A stretch of 64,000 nucleotides of DNA. Origin: an uncultured Candidatus Saccharibacteria bacterium. GTDB lineage: Bacteria > Patescibacteriota > Minisyncoccia > JAHISW01 > Tagabacteraceae. Each line of letters begins with the position of its first letter. Position 1 is the first letter of the stretch. The notes beneath the pieces were generated by a model. That model ran no database searches, was not told the DNA's origin, and saw only the letters and a program-made list of their open reading frames with translations. The stretch is from contig CAZRMW010000001.1 of assembly GCA_964601305.1 (NCBI GenBank), positions 34,376-98,375 of the forward strand, read 5' to 3'. Positions 3,043-42,847 of the stretch are shown here, piece after piece. A program made the translations under genes and the position numbers.

Positions 3043-6000
3043 CTAAAACAACCCCTCCGGCGATGTGGTAGCTGTGTTTTCTATCCATTCAATAAGAGTT
3101 GCGGTGATAGCCGAAAGACCATCTCCAAGTACGCCGAGTAAATTGTTTTCAAAAGTAACATTACTTAAACTCGTCGTAGAATTTTCTACTACAACAGCTG
3201 CCTTCGTACCCCACGGCCCACTGTAGTTATGCTCTTCAAATCTCGCATTTTCTATACTCACATTTTCAGAATTTACAGCACGAATCCCATGAGGATAATT
3301 ATTTTTAAATAAAGCATTTGCTATCTGCGCTGTAGACCCTTCTAGCAAAATACCCGCTTTGTCTCTTCCTCCAGACATTACGCTCCCCGCATACTTCATA
3401 GTAAATCCACTTGCCACAAGAGATCCAGTTTCGGAAATATTTATCCCAGCAAACTGCCCAGCTTGAGGCATCGTAGATGTTTCATCGTTGTTAGAATCCC
3501 CACTTATCTCATCGTCATAAATACTTGTAAAAATTATGTCACTCGGATTCTGTCCATCTATTACAAAATTTCCGTTTACATTTAATGTTTTCTCTCCACC
3601 CTTTATTACCACTCCGTTTTCAATAGTTAATTGCGAAGATTCTACTACCGTCGGAGTCTCATATCCATTTAAATAATAAGGTATATCATTTGATTTTAAA
3701 GTTTTTGTTGAATTAGTATTAGTTAAATTTCCCCAAATATTAATGGAGTTGGGATTGTTATTTGACCCACTGTTTCCAGAAAAACTTCCCAGCTCTCCCG
3801 AGGAATAAATTGCACCTCCAGAATTAGAAGTAAAAGTATTGTTATTTGCGATTGTATTTGAATTGCTTAAATAAAGTCCTCTTAAATTTTCTAAAAAAGT
3901 ATTATTGTTTATTGTCGGCTCTCCATTTTCTGTGTATACACCATCAGCCTCATTGCCCTCAAAAACAGAGTTTGCAATTTGCGAATTAGAATTTTTTAAT
4001 CTCAAACCATAAACTTTTGAATATTTAAAACTGGAATTAGATACAGATATTTCTGGCCCCCAAGAGACAAGCAATGATTTATCAAAAGAGTTGTTATAAT
4101 ATTTTCCACCATAGCTAAAATTAGTATATTCAAAAATAGATCCATTTTCTGCATTTTCGTTTATGCAAATACCAAACCAATCTCCAGGATTAGGATTTTC
4201 TTGAGCACTCGTAAAAGCTATTGGCTCACTCTCTGTGCCTTGTGCCAAGATTTTTCCCAGAATATTAAACCCCGAATCTCCATTAAACTTAATTTCAACT
4301 CCAGGCTCTACGGTTAATAAAACTCCACTTTCAACAACTGCGTTTATATTGTCCACCAACACTGGATTGTTTAGTCTTCTTATTGTTAAATTTCTATCTA
4401 TATTTTTATTTATAGTTAGTATGCTATTTACACTATTTGCAAATTTCGGAGTACCTTTGTTTCCTAAAAAATCATTGTTTGTGTACCAGTTTTCTGTATC
4501 GTATCTTTCCATTGTATATTTATCTGTATCTCCTGCAGGCCACGCCCCCTCTGGTGTACTATCTATTGTTGTAGTAGCTGTCGAAGTAGCTTGCACCAAA
4601 ACTAATCTCTCTCCACTATTACTAAGCCCATTTCCAAAAGACCCTATATAATCTGCTTCCACATCTGGCACTGAGGTATCGTCCGTTCTTTCTATCAAAT
4701 AATACTCGCCCGACCCAAGAGTACCTGACAAATTTATATATGGTCCGTTGTCTGTTTCTGAAAAAAGTACCCAGCCATCCAAATCTATTCCGTTTTCTGT
4801 ATTATTAAAAAGTTCTATCCATTCATCGTAAGCCGAGTTGTCCGTACCCGCCCATGCGATTTCGTTTATTAAAATCGAATGCTCTGCAAAAACTTCTTCA
4901 GGTGTTTCAGGTGTCGTGCTTGCTGTTTCTGGTGTAGTCGTAGCAACTTCTGAAGTTGAATCTTCCTCTGGAAGTTCAACCTCGCTAATTGAGTCGTCTT
5001 CTATAACAGGCGCCTCCTGAGGATTGTTTGGGGAAGAAACACTTTTTGTTGCAACAACTATCGAGGTCGAACCTCTATAGCGAGGTTCAACCTCACTAAT
5101 TAAGTTGTTGTCTTTTGTGTCCGCCATTGTTTCCACAACTGCAAAAACAGCAGAAACCGCAGTATATTCTTTTTCCTGTTTTTGTGTAGCCCTTTGATTT
5201 GCTTGTTTTTCATCTTTTTCAAAGGTTGAATCTTTATCTTGAAAATTTAGCTTTGAAGTTGTACTTCCTTCAGGAAGTCCAACTTCGTTAATTAAATCAT
5301 TCGTTTGATCTTTTTTTTCTTTGTCAAAAACATCTTTAATTTTGTTGCCAACATTTTTTATTGCTCCCCAAAACCTTGAGCCACTACCCGGTAAAAAATC
5401 TTCTGCAATTGTTATGAGCGCTGTTTTAGGCACAGGCGGTTTTTCTAGTAACGATTCGTCGTTTCGAGCCTTCTCTACTTCTTGAAAGAATAAATTAATT
5501 GCCCCTGCCACGGATATGACTGCCTCACGAGATAAACGGTTCCAGTAGCCCTGGAGGATCGGTTTGTAATCTTCATTGTCGTCCTCCAACTCATACTCTG
5601 CCAACTTCTTTTCACCGTCTTTGTCCCATACCTCCTTTGTTCTTGCCAATTTAAAATAACTTCCATCTTTATCAACACCAAAGCCATATTCATCTCCATC
5701 TATTATTTCTGGCTTATTATACCTTTCATAGCCCTCGCCATTTGCAGTATCTTTACTTAAAAAATAATTATTAGAATAATTTGCTAAATAATCAAAATAT
5801 TCTTCTATGCTCTCAAGAGAAGCTGGCTCATAACTATTTAAGCTATCCGCAATTTTAAAATTTTCTATATTAAATTGTTTTGAAAAATTTTCAAGGGGGC
5901 TATCTCCAGGGTGTGGGTCATTTCTGGTGTGTTCTGGCACGGCCATATCTTCTAGTAAATGCAGAGTAAATCCAAGAGTATAAAACGCGTCTTTTTCATT

Positions 6001-6468: not shown

Positions 6469-6948
6469 TTAAATTTCTTCTATTTTCCAATTACCTGATG
6501 GGTAAAGAATAAAATCGACAGCGATCGGTTTATAAAATGAAAAATAGTCATCAATTACATTAGGTTCTTTGTTTGTTCTCAACACTTCATTCAATAACCC
6601 TAATAGATCAGGTAATTTTTTTGCTTTATTTAAATATTCCTTCCACTCCTCCTGCTTCTCAATTACAAAATACTTACTCGCCCGCTCAAAGTCCCCCTCC
6701 TCAACAGCGCTTATAAACATTTCCAAAGTTTCCTGTGGTGTTTTCCCTCCTATTTTATCTGCTTCCATTGCTTCCTGTTTTTCTTTTGCCTCCCTATCCA
6801 TTTGTTCTACAAAATCCTTCATATCCTTTCTCATTTTCCATACATCATACCTAACCAATCCAACTTCCAAAACAACAATCAAAGTCAAAATTATCGCAAT
6901 TGCCCAAAAAATTTTATGTGTTTTTGTTTTTATAAATATATCTTTCAT
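6469..6948 (-). CDS. hypothetical membrane-anchored protein
   Basis: 159 aa, single N-terminal TM; SD GGAGG upstream; probably co-transcribed with 3043..6444. Confidence 0.45.
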   Translation of the reverse strand: MKDIFIKTKTHKIFWAIAIILTLIVVLEVGLVRYDVWKMRKDMKDFVEQMDREAKEKQEAMEADKIGGKTPQETLEMFISAVEEGDFERASKYFVIEKQEEWKEYLNKAKKLPDLLGLLNEVLRTNKEPNVIDDYFSFYKPIAVDFILYPSGNWKIEEI

Positions 6949-7096
6949 AAATCTTGTCCGCCTCCGGCGGATTAATTAATAAAAACCTAGCAAGTATTAA
7001 CACAGTATGTCAACACCCGTCACTAATAATTTTATATTTCAATGTTCTAACCATTCCTCACACCCCACACAAAACATTCTAACATTCTATAGAATA

Positions 7097-7375
7097 TTAG
7101 AATGTTTTTATAAACTTCACAAATTTTTTACCATAAGGAGAAAGAAAATGCTCCACAGACCTACCTTTGTATTTTTTGTTTACAAGTCCAGCGAGCGTCA
7201 AACGCCTAGAATGCTGAGAGGCTGTTTTCATATGGCAATTAAGTTCATCTGAAATTTGATCTACCGTGATCCCTTCATTTTTATGAACCAAAAGCAATAT
7301 ATCAATCCTCCAATGATTAGCAGCGCCTTTAAAATGTCTTTCTAGTTGTTTTGATGTTTTTACTCTATTTTTCAT
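7097..7375 (-). CDS. winged-HTH transcriptional regulator (ArsR/SmtB-like)
   Basis: 92 aa; HTH segment ITVDQISDELNCHMKTASQHSRRLTLAGLV; flanked on both sides by related palindromes. Confidence 0.6.
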   Translation of the reverse strand: MKNRVKTSKQLERHFKGAANHWRIDILLLVHKNEGITVDQISDELNCHMKTASQHSRRLTLAGLVNKKYKGRSVEHFLSPYGKKFVKFIKTF

Positions 7376-7400
7376 GTTTTCATCCTACCACATCATATAA

Positions 7401-7434
7401 AATACTCCAACATTCTATAGAATGTTGGAGTATT
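7401..7434. promoter_or_regulatory. perfect 34-bp palindrome AATACTCCAACATTCTA|TAGAATGTTGGAGTATT, 26 nt upstream of the ArsR-like gene (candidate operator and/or terminator of the upstream gene)
   Basis: Perfect inverted repeat; near-identical to 2993..3024, with a degenerate nested copy at 7074..7106 overlapping the regulator stop codon. Confidence 0.45.
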
Positions 7435-7500
7435 TTAATTTGTTTAATCTGCGAAAAACAAAAAGCCGGTGGTAAAACCACCGACCCTATAATATATTTT

Positions 7501-8148
7501 TTAAAGTAAATTTGCCTTTCTCATCCACCAAAATTTGTTTTTATTGAAGTTCTCTGCCTCAAGATTATAAAACCCCATAGCAACATCCATCTCGTCGTCT
7601 ATAACATCTTTCTGAAAAGAAGGTACCCGATCGGTATCTACAAGTTTTTTTAAACTCAAATATTCCCACTTGTTATGTTTGCATTGGTTTTTAGAATCTT
7701 TTAAATTTTCTATTCTTCCTTCTATTTTCCAAGAAAAAACTCCTAAAAACTCCCACCATTCTTTTTTATTTTTTACTATCAAGTAGCCACACCACACTCC
7801 TAAAAAGTTCCAAAAAACATCTGAAATACTCACCATATTGTCAATTGTAACCTCTTTCAGAAAAGAAGTTATTATCATAAGAACAACGCCCATCAAAACA
7901 GAGATTTTCAATCCATAGCTAAATCTTTTAAATAAAATAAAGAAAAAAGTTACTCCCAAAAAACAAGTCAAAAAATGGACTACAAAATTTAATGACTTTA
8001 ATAAGTATAAATCTTCTTTTGAAAAAGATATGTTTAAAATCCAGTCTTTAAAAACAAAAAAAGAAACAACGACTAAAAATACTCCACAAAAAAGAAAAAT
8101 TATTAACTCATTCAAACTTCTCTCGTTTTCTATTTCTTCCATTTTCAA
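7501..8148 (-). CDS. polytopic membrane protein, unknown function
   Basis: 215 aa with about 4 hydrophobic helices and a cytoplasmic C-terminal tail. Confidence 0.45.
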   Translation of the reverse strand: MKMEEIENERSLNELIIFLFCGVFLVVVSFFVFKDWILNISFSKEDLYLLKSLNFVVHFLTCFLGVTFFFILFKRFSYGLKISVLMGVVLMIITSFLKEVTIDNMVSISDVFWNFLGVWCGYLIVKNKKEWWEFLGVFSWKIEGRIENLKDSKNQCKHNKWEYLSLKKLVDTDRVPSFQKDVIDDEMDVAMGFYNLEAENFNKNKFWWMRKANLL

Positions 8149-29629: not shown

Positions 29630-29660
29630 AAAGCCCTTGCCTTATTGGCAAAGGGTTTTT
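29629..29660. terminator. terminator hairpin AAGCCCTTGCC-ttatt-GGCAAAGGG plus T-run
   Basis: GC stem plus TTTTT immediately after the stop of 29312..29629. Confidence 0.5.
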
Positions 29661-29674
29661 ATTATACAAATACA

Positions 29675-31750
29675 ATGAAATATTATATTTTTACATTTGG
29701 GTGTGGCGCCAACCACGCTGACAGTGAAAGAATCGCCAGAAAATTGAAAGCCCTCGGCCACAAAAAAGCAGTTTCTTCCAAAGAGGCTAGTTTAATAGTG
29801 CTCAATGCCTGCTCTGTTAGAAAATCTGCTATAGATAGAGTTTATGGCAAAGTAAAAAATCTAAAAAACAAGCAAATTATACTAGCAGGCTGTCTCCTTG
29901 ATTCAGATAGAAAAAAATTAGAAAAAAAAGTAAAAGCTATTTGGCATCCAGACGAATATTTCGATTTATCCCCCATAAACGAAACTTCTTTTCGTGCGCT
30001 TATACCAATCACAAAAGGTTGTAATAATTTTTGTTCGTACTGTGCTGTGCCCTACACACGAGGAAAAGAAAAATCTCGCCCAGCAAAAGACATAATCAAT
30101 GAAATTAAAGAATTAATAAAAAATAATTATAAAGAAATATGGCTGTTGGGACAAAATGTAAATAGCTATAAATCTGGGAAAACAAATTTTCCAAAACTTC
30201 TTCAGAAAATAAACAAGATTGAAGGTAATTTTTGGATAAAATTTACTTCCCCTCACCCAAAGGATTTCTCCAACGAATTAATACAAACTATAAAAAAATG
30301 TGAAAAGGTTACCAACTACATAAACCTGCCTGTTCAATCTGGGGACAATGAAATTTTGAAGAAAATGAATCGAAAATATACACGCCAGCACTACATTAAG
30401 CTTGTAAACAAAATTAAAAAAGCTATTCCAGATGTAGCAATTTCTACAGATACTATCGTAGGATTCCCTGGAGAAACACGCACTCAATTTAAAAACACTC
30501 TAGATTTGTACAAAAAAATTAAATTCGATATGGCTTTTATTTCACAATACTCCCCTCGCACAGGCACCGTATCCGCACGAACTATGAAAGACAACATAAA
30601 ACACATAAAAAAAGAAAAGCGCGACAAAGAGCTTACAAAAGTATTAGCCAAATATTCGCTCGAGAAAAATAAAAAATTAGTTGGGCAAACTATAAAAGTT
30701 TTAATTGACTCACAAAAAGACACTAATTTTTTTGGCCGCACAGAAGGCAACAAAATAGTTAAAATAAATAAAACTGATTCTATAAGTATAGGAAAATTTG
30801 TAGATATAAAAATAACAAAAGCTACCTCTTGGAAGCTGGAGGGAGAAATCGCTCCTACAAAAATTATAGTAGTTTTGGGCCCCACAAGCTCTGGAAAAAG
30901 CGACTTAGCTGTAGATATAGCTCTTCAATTCCCTTCTGAAATTATTTCTGCAGATTCTAGGCAAGTTTATAAACACATACCTATCGGTACAGGGGCTATA
31001 ACCAAAAAAGAAATGAAGGGTATTTCCCATCATTTGCTAGGTTTTGTAAATCCCAAAAAAACATATACTGCAATAGATTTTAAAAAAGATGCAGAAAAAG
31101 CTATAAAAGAAATTCTAAACAAAAACAAAATACCAATAATATGTGGTGGCACAGGGTTTTATATACAAACACTTTTAAGTGGCAATAATTTACCAAAAGT
31201 AAAACCAAACTGGCCTCTTAGAAAAAAAATGGAGAAAAAAACAGCAGGCCAACTTTTTAAACAACTTCAAAAGCTCGACCCCAAACGCGCTAAAAACATA
31301 GATTCAAAAAACAAGCGGCGTTTAATTCGTGCTATCGAGATTGCTATCAAATTAACGAAGTCGGACTTCGATAGTTCACTACCGAAATCCGACTTCAATA
31401 GTTGGGATGTGCTGTATTTAGGTATAGAAAGAAAAAGTGGTAATTTAGAAAAACTTATCAGAAAAAGAATTTTGGGACTTATAAAAAGAGGGCTTTTGGC
31501 AGAAGTAAAAAATTTAAGAAAGAAAAAAGTCTCCTGGAAAAGAATAGACGAACTAGGTTTTGAGTATAAATACCCAGCTCAATATATCCGCGAAGAAATA
31601 AATAAAGAAGAAATGGTAGAAAAAATACTTACAGGAAATAATAAGTACGCAAAAAGACAGATGACTTGGTTTTTAAAATATACCCCAAAGACAATTTGGG
31701 TAAAAAATTCTAAGGAAGCTATGAAATTATCTAAAAAATTTTTAGACTAA
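29675..31750 (+). CDS. miaB-miaA: fusion protein: MiaB-like radical-SAM methylthiotransferase (MTTase-N, radical SAM, TRAM) fused to MiaA tRNA dimethylallyltransferase
   Basis: Start MKYYIFTFGCGANHADSE (MTTase N-terminus Cys), LNACSVR, AGC, CNNFCSYCAVP radical SAM, TRAM region; then IIVVLGPTSSGKSDLAVDIAL (P-loop), ISADSRQVYKHIPIGT, HHLLGF = MiaA. Single continuous 692-aa ORF. Confidence 0.8.
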   Translation: MKYYIFTFGCGANHADSERIARKLKALGHKKAVSSKEASLIVLNACSVRKSAIDRVYGKVKNLKNKQIILAGCLLDSDRKKLEKKVKAIWHPDEYFDLSPINETSFRALIPITKGCNNFCSYCAVPYTRGKEKSRPAKDIINEIKELIKNNYKEIWLLGQNVNSYKSGKTNFPKLLQKINKIEGNFWIKFTSPHPKDFSNELIQTIKKCEKVTNYINLPVQSGDNEILKKMNRKYTRQHYIKLVNKIKKAIPDVAISTDTIVGFPGETRTQFKNTLDLYKKIKFDMAFISQYSPRTGTVSARTMKDNIKHIKKEKRDKELTKVLAKYSLEKNKKLVGQTIKVLIDSQKDTNFFGRTEGNKIVKINKTDSISIGKFVDIKITKATSWKLEGEIAPTKIIVVLGPTSSGKSDLAVDIALQFPSEIISADSRQVYKHIPIGTGAITKKEMKGISHHLLGFVNPKKTYTAIDFKKDAEKAIKEILNKNKIPIICGGTGFYIQTLLSGNNLPKVKPNWPLRKKMEKKTAGQLFKQLQKLDPKRAKNIDSKNKRRLIRAIEIAIKLTKSDFDSSLPKSDFNSWDVLYLGIERKSGNLEKLIRKRILGLIKRGLLAEVKNLRKKKVSWKRIDELGFEYKYPAQYIREEINKEEMVEKILTGNNKYAKRQMTWFLKYTPKTIWVKNSKEAMKLSKKFLD

Positions 31751-33467: not shown

Positions 33468-33647
33468 TTACTTCTTCCAGTCTTCTAAAATTATTCTGCT
33501 TCCAACTTTTCGGACTTTTATTTTTTGTCTTTCTCGCCATTTCAACTCACGCACAATTTCAATAGGTAAAGTTAGCCCCATACTTCGTCCCCCACCCATT
33601 CTTGTTAATTTCCTCAAATTTTTCTCTTTTAATTTTCGTCTTGCCAT
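33468..33647 (-). CDS. AbrB/MazE/SpoVT-fold small DNA-binding protein (59 aa; not in ORF track)
   Basis: MARRKLKEKNLRKLTRMGGGRSMGLTLPIEIVRELKWRERQKIKVRKVGSRIILEDWKK: swapped-hairpin pattern (G-x-x-x-T-L/I-P-x-E-I-R-x-x-L); 60 nt upstream of the GNAT gene. Confidence 0.5.
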   Translation of the reverse strand: MARRKLKEKNLRKLTRMGGGRSMGLTLPIEIVRELKWRERQKIKVRKVGSRIILEDWKK

Positions 33648-33668: not shown

Positions 33669-33748
33669 CTACTGAATTAAATACTGAATTAATTCAGTAG
33701 CAAGAAAAAAGTACAAAACACCGCGACCGCTACATTTTGTACTTTTTT
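33669..33748. terminator. two consecutive hairpins (CTACTGAATTAA..TTAATTCAGTAG; AAAAAAGTACAAAA..TTTTGTACTTTTTT)
   Basis: Perfect stems with A/T runs downstream of tRNA-Trp / element A on the minus strand. Confidence 0.5.
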
Positions 33749-33876
33749 ATTTCGAGCACGGGATGAGGGAATCGGTCACAAATCACTAAGTATATTTCTT
33801 CGCTACGCTCGAAATCTACAAAGTGTTCGCGACCCCGCCTCCTTCACTTCGTTCAGTCCGGCATTCGATTCCCTCC
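33747..33876. repeat. partial duplicate of the tRNA-Trp 3' end (TTTCGAGCACGGGATGAGGGAATCGG) fused to a GC-rich about 100-nt element bounded by inverted T-arm-like repeats
   Basis: 25-nt identity with the 3' end plus trailer of tRNA-Trp 190 bp away, in direct orientation; junction GG|TCACAAATC; element ends GGCATTCGATTCCCTCC (inverse of GAGGGAATCG). Confidence 0.45.
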
Positions 33877-33933
33877 TTTTTCTGAACTTACAAAACAAAA
33901 AACATGGCATTTAGCCATCTTTTTTGTTTCGAG

Positions 33934-34004
33934 CACGGGATGAGGGAATCGAACCCCCGACCGCGGTTTTGGAGACCGCTATTATACCACTTAACTAATC
34001 CCGC
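33934..34004 (-). tRNA. tRNA-Trp (anticodon CCA)
   Basis: Acceptor GCGGGAT/ATCCCGT (G1-U72), anticodon arm GCGGT-CTCCAAA-ACCGC, T-arm GGGGG-TTCGATT-CCCTC, discriminator G. Confidence 0.65.
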
Positions 34005-34074: not shown

Positions 34075-34422
34075 ATGAACGAAAAAAATTTTGAAAGATA
34101 TTGTCCAAAATGCAACAAAAAAGCTGAAAAGTGCAATCAATCCATTTTTAGAGTAATTAGCTGGTTCAGCACAGTAAAAAGAATTGATATAATCTATTTT
34201 CTTTGCAGTAATTGTCGATTAGTTTATATAGACAAAAGTATTGTTTTAAAAATTATAAGTGATTTTAGAAGATCTTTGAGAAAAGACCAGAGAAAGAAAC
34301 TTTCCCACCTAGAGACGTACCAGAGAATTTTAAAAACACTAGAAAAAGATATTTCAGAATTTAGAGTAAATCGTCTTGGATATAGAAAAGTAGATCGTTT
34401 CAACAAAAAGCCTAGCAAATGA
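34075..34422 (+). CDS. hypothetical Cys-rich (Zn-ribbon-like) basic protein
   Basis: 115-aa ORF with CPKC...C and CSNC; opposite strand to its neighbours. Confidence 0.3.
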   Translation: MNEKNFERYCPKCNKKAEKCNQSIFRVISWFSTVKRIDIIYFLCSNCRLVYIDKSIVLKIISDFRRSLRKDQRKKLSHLETYQRILKTLEKDISEFRVNRLGYRKVDRFNKKPSK

Positions 34423-34435
34423 TTGCCAGGGCTTT

Positions 34436-34597
34436 TTATTTTTTTTTGCCTTCTTTGTGTGGCGTACGCTTCTTACACCACTTGCAAAACTTACTGAACT
34501 CTATTTTACGCTCAACTTTTTTCTTGTTTTTGCGGGTCCAGTAATTGATTCTTTTACATTCTCCGCAAAGTAGTTTAATTAGTTTGTCTTGGCTCAT
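34436..34597 (-). CDS. rpmG: 50S ribosomal protein L33 (Zn-ribbon type); missed by ORF track (53 aa)
   Basis: MSQDKLIKLLCGECKRINYWTRKNKKKVERKIEFSKFCKWCKKRTPHKEGKKK: C-x-x-C...NY-x-T-x-KNKK...C-x-x-C...H-K-E pattern of L33. Confidence 0.8.
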   Translation of the reverse strand: MSQDKLIKLLCGECKRINYWTRKNKKKVERKIEFSKFCKWCKKRTPHKEGKKK

Positions 34598-34633
34598 AGG
34601 GAATAATATATATCAAGACAGCCAAAAAAGCAA

Positions 34634-34856
34634 CGGTGGGGAGGGATTCGGTCACAAGTCTGCCTGTATAGAGGGATTCGGCCGCTCTCGTGGATCTCGT
34701 TTCGTGCTACGCACTCGCTGCGATCTCACTCCCTCGGCCCCCACTCGGGCTGTCGTCCGCCCAAGGCGGACTCGCTTCACCAGCCCTCGGTTCGAATCCT
34801 TCCTCACTGCAAAACAGTAAAGCCTCAATGCTTCGCATTGAGACTAAACTGTTTTG
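34634..34856 (-). other. GC-rich structured element B (about 220 nt) between tRNA-Tyr and rpmG, beginning with a partial duplicate of the tRNA-Tyr 3' end; homologous to element A
   Basis: GGGGAGGGATTCGG|TCACAAGTC shares the junction motif with 33762..33785; internal GC-rich stems (GTCCGCCCAAGGCGGAC); ends with sense T-arm-like GGTTCGAATCC; GC content far above its surroundings. Confidence 0.4.
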
Positions 34857-34941
34857 TGCATGGGGAGGGATTCGAACCCCCGTAGTCCGTTAGGACGACA
34901 GTTTTACAGACTGTTGCATTTAGCCACTCTGCCACCCATGC
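34857..34941 (-). tRNA. tRNA-Tyr (anticodon GUA), long variable arm
   Basis: Acceptor GCATGGG/CCCATGC, anticodon arm ACAGT-CTGTAAA-ACTGT, variable arm GTCC-TAAC-GGAC, T-arm GGGGG-TTCGAAT-CCCTC, discriminator A. Confidence 0.75.
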
Positions 34942-42121: not shown

Positions 42122-42262
42122 ATTACCATTTTAGATAAATTATCCAAAAATCATCGACCGCATAAAATTGGATAGTTTTTAAAAACAAAAACATCATACA
42201 TCCTTGGCGATAGCACTAGATATATGATGTTTAAGATAGACAAAACAAAACAGAAAAAAGCA

Positions 42263-42308
42263 GAGCCCTCGTAAGAGGGCTCTTTTTGTTTTGTTCCGCT
42301 GGAGCGGA
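42263..42308. terminator. two GC hairpins (AGAGCCCTCgtaaGAGGGCTCT with A/T flanks; GTTCCGCTGGAGCGGAAC)
   Basis: Perfect stems immediately 3' of the GC-rich minus-strand gene. Confidence 0.5.
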
Positions 42309-42315
42309 ACAGTGA

Positions 42316-42696
42316 TCAACATCCGTTGCGTGCAACCGGTCGGTAGACGGCGATATTCCGCAGAGATCCGATGGCGTCCATGTAAGACCAATGCCGGGAT
42401 CTGACGATGTCGTATAAATTGAGTTTACGGGTGGCGCTGGCAATGTTCATCCGGAACTTTCCATTATAGTAGATGACGGCAGTGGCCAGCAGAGCAAGGG
42501 TGAAGATGGCAGCCGCGACGACCACGATCAGTGGCAGCGCCGGTCCGAAGGTTATGGTGGTAAGACTCGAAAAACTTTTCAGCATGGTGCCGATGACGCC
42601 GACGCTCGCAGTGGCCGATGCCGTCATCGCCGTGATGGTAACTCCAACTACGAGGGCAACAATGAGCCCTATGAGAAATACGGCAAATCTGTTCAT
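42316..42696 (-). CDS. GC-rich small membrane protein (2-3 TM), likely horizontally acquired
   Basis: 126-aa ORF; Ala/Val/Thr-rich TM helices; region 42190..42720 much GC-richer than the flanks. Confidence 0.5.
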   Translation of the reverse strand: MNRFAVFLIGLIVALVVGVTITAMTASATASVGVIGTMLKSFSSLTTITFGPALPLIVVVAAAIFTLALLATAVIYYNGKFRMNIASATRKLNLYDIVRSRHWSYMDAIGSLRNIAVYRPVARNGC

Positions 42697-42847
42697 AACA
42701 TCCTCCTTTTGTGCCTATTTAAAGGCTTTTTGTGGGAAAATCCCGTTTCAAACTTATATTTGGTTTTTAAACCTGATATTTAGTATACTCTTATACAAAA
42801 CATTGTCAACCCCGTCATTCGACGAGGCGAAGCCTCTTTGTGGATAA

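Follow-up and report, generated by a model that had tools for sequence, protein, structure and literature searches.

The 64,000-nt stretch of DNA analysed here (the window) is AT-rich, with a GC fraction of 0.34 overall as against 0.58 at 34600-34899, and within 34612-34865 the GC fraction peaks at 0.675 (67.5 %) in a 120-nt window. This GC-rich stretch stands in a row of features that all lie on the minus strand, namely ClpB (37608 to 34945), tRNA-Tyr (34941 to 34856), the stretch itself and rpmG (34597 to 34436). The tRNA-Tyr (GUA) gene at 34856-34941 is intact according to ARAGORN and the Rfam tRNA model (59.8 bits), and rpmG at 34436-34597 encodes L33, a protein of 53 aa (Pfam PF00471, E=1.7e-16), as a first-pass annotation had proposed. 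That annotation had also placed a GC-rich element between the two genes, where it is indeed found with its listed motifs at their coordinates, and had called it the only strongly GC-rich non-coding stretch of the window, a description that stands because the second strongly GC-rich stretch, at 42257-42706, is covered by a 126-aa ORF. A 91-aa ORF at 34545-34820, already set aside as spurious, is likewise regarded here as spurious and produced by the element, which is a source of such ORFs as well as of tRNA-fragment pseudo-hits. A scaffold of the same organism from an independent assembly (L045) carries the identical sequence save for a 10-N scaffold gap inside the element (L045 3531-3540, corresponding to 34764-34800 of the window); the element thus confuses assemblers, and it is probably its palindrome and repeats that break the assemblies.

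Anatomy of the tRNA-Tyr copy and the empty site in a relative

Read in the tRNA sense, i.e. along the minus strand on which all of its parts are described here, the locus opens with tRNA-Tyr and a terminator hairpin; the 3' part of the tRNA then recurs twice, first inverted and, beyond a GC-rich core, in direct orientation from C56 on, and rpmG closes the row. Below, IR and DR stand for the inverted and the direct copy, respectively, of the tRNA segment that begins at C56 and extends to the 3' end. The same segment of the tRNA-Tyr gene itself (34857-34874) makes up the 5' arm of a long palindrome (repeat I8), the apex of which is the terminator-like hairpin X at 34810-34856 (inverted repeat I1), with a terminator-like site running from 34845 to 34821; this is the hairpin that had been noted after tRNA-Tyr, and it resembles the hairpins of copies elsewhere (AAAACAGTTTAG...CTTTACTGTTTT; comparison with L047, L050 and L124). 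Next comes the IR at 34789-34809, which stops at the complement of C56 and serves as the 5' arm of the closing helix P1, based on repeats I8 and I16 and on the covariance model alignment. The T-arm-like motif GGTTCGAATCC recognized in the first-pass annotation lies at 34789-34799, and the 18-nt arm is 89 % complementary to the 3' end of tRNA-Tyr itself.

The GC-rich stretch proper is composite. One part (34664-34809) is a GC-rich, diverged, full-length member of the family described below, and it matches covariance model R1 weakly (cmsearch, 23.5 bits, E=7.7e-5, model positions 1-144), with P1, the junction GAGUGGGG and outer P3 recognisable and inner P3 replaced. Its fold has z=-3.1, and the GTCCGCCCAAGGCGGAC stem, earlier singled out as stable, appears in both folds. 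The other part (34651-34670) is a piece from the 3' end of a canonical copy (UAUAC..CUUGUGAC); its motif TCGGTCACAAGTC.....GTATA matches the family pattern exactly, and it is probably the remnant of an earlier or tandem insertion. The DR at 34636-34650 (repeats D1 and I16) is the ancestral tRNA-Tyr 3' end (C56 onwards) in its displaced position; it amounts to 13 nt, its acceptor part having decayed, and the 13-nt copy of the tRNA-Tyr 3' region that had been pointed out before (GGGGAGGGATTCG) does repeat 34862-34874 at 34638-34650 and is followed by GTCACAAGTC. The ancestral spacer and rpmG (34436-34635) flank the element and lie outside it, as given by the alignment with the relative L046. BLAST returned no close relative of the Tyr copy, and diverged copies share only the junction motifs; the idea that the Tyr copy has kin in a GC-rich sub-family was considered and rejected on these grounds. 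The Tyr copy is read as an old, diverging family member.

By its ClpB, the organism is a Patescibacterium, and the best relatives have 76-80 % identity. In the relative L046, tRNA-Tyr is followed by 45 nt and then rpmG, with no element between them, and the DR, flank and rpmG of the window are colinear with the tRNA-Tyr 3' end, spacer and rpmG of that relative, the identity beginning exactly at C56 (TGTGAC|CGAATCCCTCCC in the window vs GGGGTT|CGAATCCCTCCC in L046). This result comes from an alignment of the repeat and flank only; a global MAFFT alignment misplaced the gap. Given the colinearity and the onset of identity at C56, approximately 224 bp were therefore inserted between U55 and C56. 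The tRNA-Tyr gene is intact because a copy of its C56-to-3'-end segment now follows U55; the tRNA uses this proximal copy, and the old 3' end has been pushed downstream as a direct repeat. The element is also absent from L004, which has tRNA-Tyr, an ORF, rpmG and tRNA-Trp, and from L001, where the locus is rearranged. In L001, the closest genomic relative, tRNA-Tyr, tRNA-Trp and rpmG (6674-7110) are inverted relative to ClpB and changed in order, with breakpoints at tRNA genes, and in L002, another relative, ClpB is separated from tRNA-Tyr by two ORFs (6725-7828), one HicB-like and one LAGLIDADG.

These loci bear directly on the idea that the element regulates rpmG in cis, either as a 5' leader, as raised in the first-pass annotation, or as a riboswitch. 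The idea has in its favour that the element is upstream of rpmG and on the same strand, but it is contradicted by the lack of the element upstream of rpmG in L001, L004 and L046, by unrelated genes downstream of other copies and by the lack of any leader match in Rfam, and its probability is close to nil. The ancestral spacer, which contains a promoter-like TTGCTT-17-TATATT near the rpmG ATG (read by eye and scoring under the threshold of the promoter scan), is kept intact between the element and the gene; since it still precedes rpmG, the element is not an rpmG leader, and rpmG expression does not involve the Tyr copy.

The tRNA-Trp copy and the core fold

A second copy in the window has as its target tRNA-Trp (CCA; 33933-34004, minus strand, ARAGORN and Rfam), and both loci have in common the order intact tRNA, hairpin X, IR, core, the invariant junction GTGAC|CGAAT and DR. 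On the same strand, hairpin X of the Trp copy (33893-33929; I10) is terminator-like in both directions, and the copy itself (33758-33882) is a canonical member with a three-way junction of P1, P2 and P3, whose scores (cmsearch, 120 bits; nhmmer, E=1.9e-29) are high by construction because this copy is part of the seed alignment and profile A3. Its DR (33742-33774; D2, 97 % identity; I4) is a repeat of 33 nt that takes in the tRNA-Trp 3' part and 15 nt of ancestral trailer, and part of that trailer (CGAAA) is also found behind tRNA-Trp in the relative L004; the original tRNA-Trp terminator hairpin comes next, at 33702-33751. The homology of the two elements, which the first-pass annotation had asserted, is correct, inasmuch as they share an exact TCGGTCACAARTC and are both matched by the one covariance model, R1, with the Tyr copy lying outside its seed. 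Additionally, the ends of the element pair together, and where the T-loop of Tyr differs from that of Trp by A/T, both pairing arms show the change. The fold of the Trp copy has z=-4.0 on the minus strand vs -1.6 on the plus strand; the structured strand is the tRNA-sense (minus) strand, which corrects the earlier choice of the plus strand. Two small ORFs lie near this copy, one of 59 aa (33468-33647, minus strand), AbrB/MazE-like by a weak match to PF04014 (E=0.0056) and directly downstream of it, and one of 115 aa on the opposite strand (34075-34422, plus strand), between rpmG and tRNA-Trp, which has two CxxC pairs, no Pfam match and nothing at its position in L004.

The consensus of the core in model R1, which is about 110-150 nt long, runs UUCGAAAGRCGGA, P2, GAGYCGGGG, P3, GUGAC|CGAAU. 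RNAalifold, applied to 15 copies, gives a three-way junction in which 16 of 38 pairs have compensatory changes; P1 is formed by IR and DR, P2 by GRC..GYC together with a variable hairpin, and P3 is a long helix in three parts. Covariation across the copies of the family is strong. In 128 model-aligned copies, 94.2 % of cells are paired vs 73.8 % in shuffles, 36 of the 38 pairs vary on both sides, and the covariation score is 0.412 vs 0.121 for shuffled data (reached by 0 of 500 shuffles) and at most 0.053 with slid partners, all of these figures being somewhat inflated by an alignment that was fitted to the model. There are 252 G.U pairs as against 66 A.C mismatches, or 98 as against 60 when two conserved G.U pairs are left out; the bias favours the tRNA-sense strand and rests largely on those two pairs. 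The junction strands are the most conserved parts and are all that diverged copies keep, and the conserved unpaired or odd features include the G.U pairs, a bulged A and a U.U mismatch.

Extent of the family and its spread among tRNA genes

An exact pattern derived from the two window copies occurs at 22 loci among 185,579 species genomes, 21 of them with the architecture of the element, and all but possibly one of these 21 are annotated as Patescibacteria, with hosts among the Paceibacteria, Kaiser-, Nomura-, Campbell-, Parcu- and Saccharibacteria and up to four element-bearing contigs from one MAG. The core pattern occurs at no fewer than 120 loci in metagenomes, and an nhmmer search yielded 169 copies in 142 loci. 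A same-strand tRNA lies within 120 nt upstream of 75 copies, covering 35 anticodons and 20 amino acids; copies that have no such tRNA are mostly cut by contig ends, in tandem arrays or partial matches. Membership was judged by the core model and by three local features, i.e. a position at most 120 nt 3' of a co-oriented tRNA, a segment from C56 to the IR end that folds as one long hairpin, and a DR starting from C56, and both window copies have all of these.

Among 2.9 million viral contigs, two core patterns had 0 matches, and the 40 matches to a loose junction pattern were all judged by context to be chance. The Rfam scan called for in the first-pass annotation matched no known family: only tRNAs reach the gathering threshold, and nothing credible falls on the element at E up to 10, so that tmRNA, RNase P, SRP, 6S, Y RNA, riboswitches, ribozymes and group I introns were all discarded as candidates; ARAGORN found no tmRNA. 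An intron-bearing tRNA gene on the plus strand was also dismissed, as its T-stem is unpaired by eye and ARAGORN finds nothing there. The literature, including searches on sequence strings, yielded no description of the family; group I introns have been reported at position 35/36 of Patescibacteria tRNAs (PMC13011429), and these are unrelated to the element. No protein gene recurs beside the copies, no coding capacity was seen in the element, and no gene-carrying versions between conserved ends were found, the long-distance cases (L164, L124) being separate copies. The family is apparently undescribed, CPR-wide, structured and directed at tRNA T-loops.

The end of the element that adjoins the tRNA is highly regular. 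All distinct copies that were folded (37 of 37) form a single hairpin between C56 of the gene and the end of the IR (median 85 nt), with a median of 84 % paired and -53 kcal/mol. The apex of this palindrome resembles an intrinsic terminator, so that the element gives tRNA genes terminators, and apices are alike among copies at different tRNAs; hairpin X therefore travels with the element. The exact DR has a modal length of 19-20 nt (to tRNA position 73 plus 1-2 nt), with some of 25 nt and some of at least 34 nt, and the exact match of the IR is usually 8-10 nt and at times all 18. Where the gene copy and the DR disagree, the IR agrees with the gene copy at 29 positions and with the DR at 7. 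An origin of the repeats from mature tRNA was considered and not adopted, CCA following 7 of 26 repeats vs 4 of 26 genes, which is no clear excess. In L106 and L110, the first 6 nt of the displaced tRNA 3' end survive, as does its trailer, but the T-stem/acceptor sequence between them is replaced or part-duplicated, and this looks like something beyond simple decay.

Cores that are at least 78 % identical occur at different tRNA types, as in the sets Gly/Ala/Trp, Leu/Ser (within one genome), Gln/Tyr and Phe/Gln, and paralogues differ in their variable hairpins by compensatory changes. Tandem arrays are common. Both the near-identity of cores at different tRNAs and the frequency of tandem arrays imply that the element moves. 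We therefore lean, with some reserve, towards the view that the stretch behind tRNA-Tyr is an insertion into that gene by a small, non-coding, non-autonomous mobile element, belonging to an uncatalogued family that, in the scans made here, is essentially confined to Patescibacteria. A mobile structured element had been one of the options in the first-pass annotation, and the empty site of a relative, the target-derived repeats, the many copies at many tRNAs and the tandem arrays all support it. Several observations sit less easily with mobility, however: no enzyme was found among the neighbours, neither an excised or circular form nor a polymorphic empty site within a population was seen, and both the fact that the junction is strongly conserved even between distant CPR classes and the vertical retention of a sub-family adjacent to ftsZ also fit a host function.

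In that sub-family, which stands behind ftsZ and not behind a tRNA gene, a copy lies inside the 3' end of ftsZ at an off-target site, GGTG|CGGTTCC, which is T-loop-like (compare GGTT|CGAATCC), and its inverted arm is complementary to GCGGTTCCYGC, a piece of conserved coding sequence (..GAVPAF..) in the 3' end of the gene. The loci concerned are L119, L120 (e.g. 4138-4480), L079/L107, L087, L128 and L163, and further tandem units often stand behind the first.

Such a host function would be that of a non-coding RNA gene family, in which the core would be transcribed by read-through from the tRNA promoter, released by tRNA-processing enzymes and spread by duplication. The RNA could mimic a tRNA or serve as a decoy, take part in 3' processing or quality control, or stabilise the 3' end, with a closing helix that copies the acceptor and T-stem of the neighbouring tRNA. 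Strong covariation on the tRNA-sense strand, the constant co-orientation of copies directly behind tRNAs, a junction kept across CPR classes, the maintenance of the ftsZ-adjacent sub-family in several related contigs and the continuing complementarity of the IR to the gene copy are all as this account would have them. But every copy examined has an intrinsic-terminator-like hairpin between tRNA and core, the promoter scan found no promoter-like site, only some tRNAs carry the element and close relatives are without it, the closing helix is often left unpaired in its acceptor part, and tandem arrays and decayed copies resemble insertion debris. A host RNA family is a possible but doubtful explanation. 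An sRNA, the remaining option of the first-pass annotation, is likewise possible, but it too is faced with the terminator-like hairpin between tRNA and core and with the lack of a promoter-like site in the scan.

Likeness to known systems and candidate mechanisms

As a mobile element, the family invites comparison with the islands that tyrosine integrases insert at tRNA genes and with their CIME derivatives, which likewise enter the T-loop region, regenerate the tRNA, leave a DR of the tRNA 3' part and accumulate in tandem. The copies might accordingly be scars of integrase islands or prophages, i.e. att sites and ends left after internal deletion (CIME-like) and inactive in themselves; a DR of the tRNA 3' end (13 nt at Tyr, 33 nt at Trp) that is bounded at the end of the tRNA is typical of attL/attR, and at one locus a 3.4-kb island is stacked with two tandem copies at a single tRNA-Ser (L051 2347-6172). 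In contrast to such islands, the element is ~200 nt long and gene-less, uses one core for at least 35 anticodons, and has both an inverted target copy and a conserved three-way junction. Scars would hardly be expected to have a uniform size of ~130-250 nt, the same compensatory three-way junction in ~170 copies and closely related cores at many tRNA types, and neither an integrase nor another recurrent gene was found among the neighbours, nor a cargo version, nor a match in the viral contigs; this explanation is very improbable. The island in L051 encodes an 819-aa ATPase-like protein, and its ends also bear T-arm-like sequences.

A second comparison is with short hairpin-forming repeats. Like MITEs and REPINs (Correia, RUP, REP/RAYT), the element is short, non-coding, multi-copy, hairpin-forming, non-autonomous and intergenic behind genes. 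Unlike them, it is tied to a single defined target and a single orientation, the source of its terminal repeats is the target and not the element (target-derived inverted arms, and a repeat with a mode of 19-20 nt that is nonetheless variable), the family is conserved across a superphylum and not within one species, and there is no parent transposon known, nor was a parent element found. The more specific possibility that the copies are REPIN-like or IS200/IS605-like hairpin repeats, moved on the lagging-strand template by a single-copy, RAYT-type Y1 (HUH) transposase, has some attraction, as a function in folded single-stranded DNA fits the strand-specific G.T pairs and conserved bulges. PF01797 (Y1_Tnp) genes are present a few kb from the ClpB-tRNA-Tyr locus in L001 and L004, and Y1_Tnp homologues lie 1.5-5 kb from copies at 6 distinct loci, a count that by itself need not mean enrichment and is a weak lead. 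However, the window is without Y1_Tnp, L001 and L004 have the gene yet no element, the Y1 genes are not flanked by copies, and REPINs are species-specific and lack target-derived repeats, all of which makes this possibility an improbable one. The Y1_Tnp genes encode 205-226 aa (L001 1294-1974, L004 1293-1910, and L099, L181, L116, L161, L065 and L110/L160); shared ClpB synteny was rejected as the cause of their proximity, because the element loci in question are not ClpB loci. The omega-RNA of IS200/IS605 elements, the guide of TnpB/IscB, was likewise considered, and no recurrent TnpB or IscB gene was found beside copies; the guide reading was rejected, as such a guide would turn on the intact tRNA beside it, a self-target.

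A third comparison is with systems that integrate as folded single strands. In the CTX phage and at integron attC sites, integration by way of a folded single-stranded hairpin predicts the order target, spacer, inverted target, body, target, and the order target, inverted target, target is found in all copies of the element. By analogy with CTX-phage attP(+)/IMEX, acted upon by XerCD, and with attC, acted upon by IntI, the tRNA-end hairpin could be a single-stranded hairpin that imitates a duplex target, and it resembles these sites in being strand-specific and in having conserved bulges and mismatches. It differs from them in that the target is a tRNA T-loop and not dif or attI, in that there is a 110-150-nt body, and in that the target-matching arms vary from copy to copy. 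Neurospora mitochondrial retroplasmids gain tRNA sequences by template switching and integrate at a tRNA gene, so that the boundary of the copied segment at the tRNA 3' end and the integration beside the cognate tRNA gene may be regarded as analogous; the retroplasmids, however, need a reverse transcriptase, and none was seen here. Patescibacteria have been reported to be without group II introns (PMC13011429). The terminal helix made of acceptor and T-stem sequences also recalls the tRNA-like domain of tmRNA and YrlA, but the element has no Rfam match to these, the identity of its helix varies with the neighbouring tRNA, and the acceptor part is often unpaired.

For the mobile-element reading, a mechanism can be sketched. 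A trans-acting enzyme would nick sequences like GGTT|CGAAT, recognizing the folded, tRNA-sense single strand, and this strand would be either DNA that is exposed during replication or transfer or, with lower probability, RNA. With each move, it may be conjectured, the target would serve to make the tRNA-specific arms anew, for instance if copying turned around on the displaced strand and ran back as far as the nick, which would account both for the exact stop of the IR at C56 and for its agreement with the gene copy. On excision, the unit [R-X-IR-core] would take the form of a three-armed closed circle. A bolder version, which we consider unlikely though worth stating, is that the element is a protein-less, covalently closed, viroid-like single strand of ~200-250 nt with three arms (tRNA-end hairpin, P2 and P3) that enters and leaves T-loops by means of nothing but host enzymes or its own catalysis, rewriting its 18-nt targeting arm from the tRNA that it has invaded; if true, arm rewriting would be a new, template-driven form of target choice. 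We know of no transposition or integration scheme that readily explains the target-derived inverted arm, an internal stretch of 18 nt with the conserved hairpin on one side and the conserved core on the other.

Patescibacteria genomes are tiny and have little room for selfish DNA. An element of 150-250 nt is nonetheless widespread in them, entering essential tRNA genes without disabling them, and it shows that insertion into tRNA genes can be harmless without an integrase of its own. An enzyme that recognizes GGTT|CGAAT beside a three-way junction, if found, might be of use as a site-specific tool.

Two further features of the window may be recorded. The other GC-rich island, at 42257-42706, has a GC content of as much as 62 %, compared with 34 % for the genome, and is possibly of horizontal origin; its 126-aa ORF (42316-42696, minus strand) looks hydrophobic. 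At 29645-31750 on the plus strand, a 701-aa ORF is an apparent fusion of a MiaB-like radical-SAM protein and a MiaA-like isopentenyl transferase, and the same combination of Pfam domains is also found in L001 and L004.
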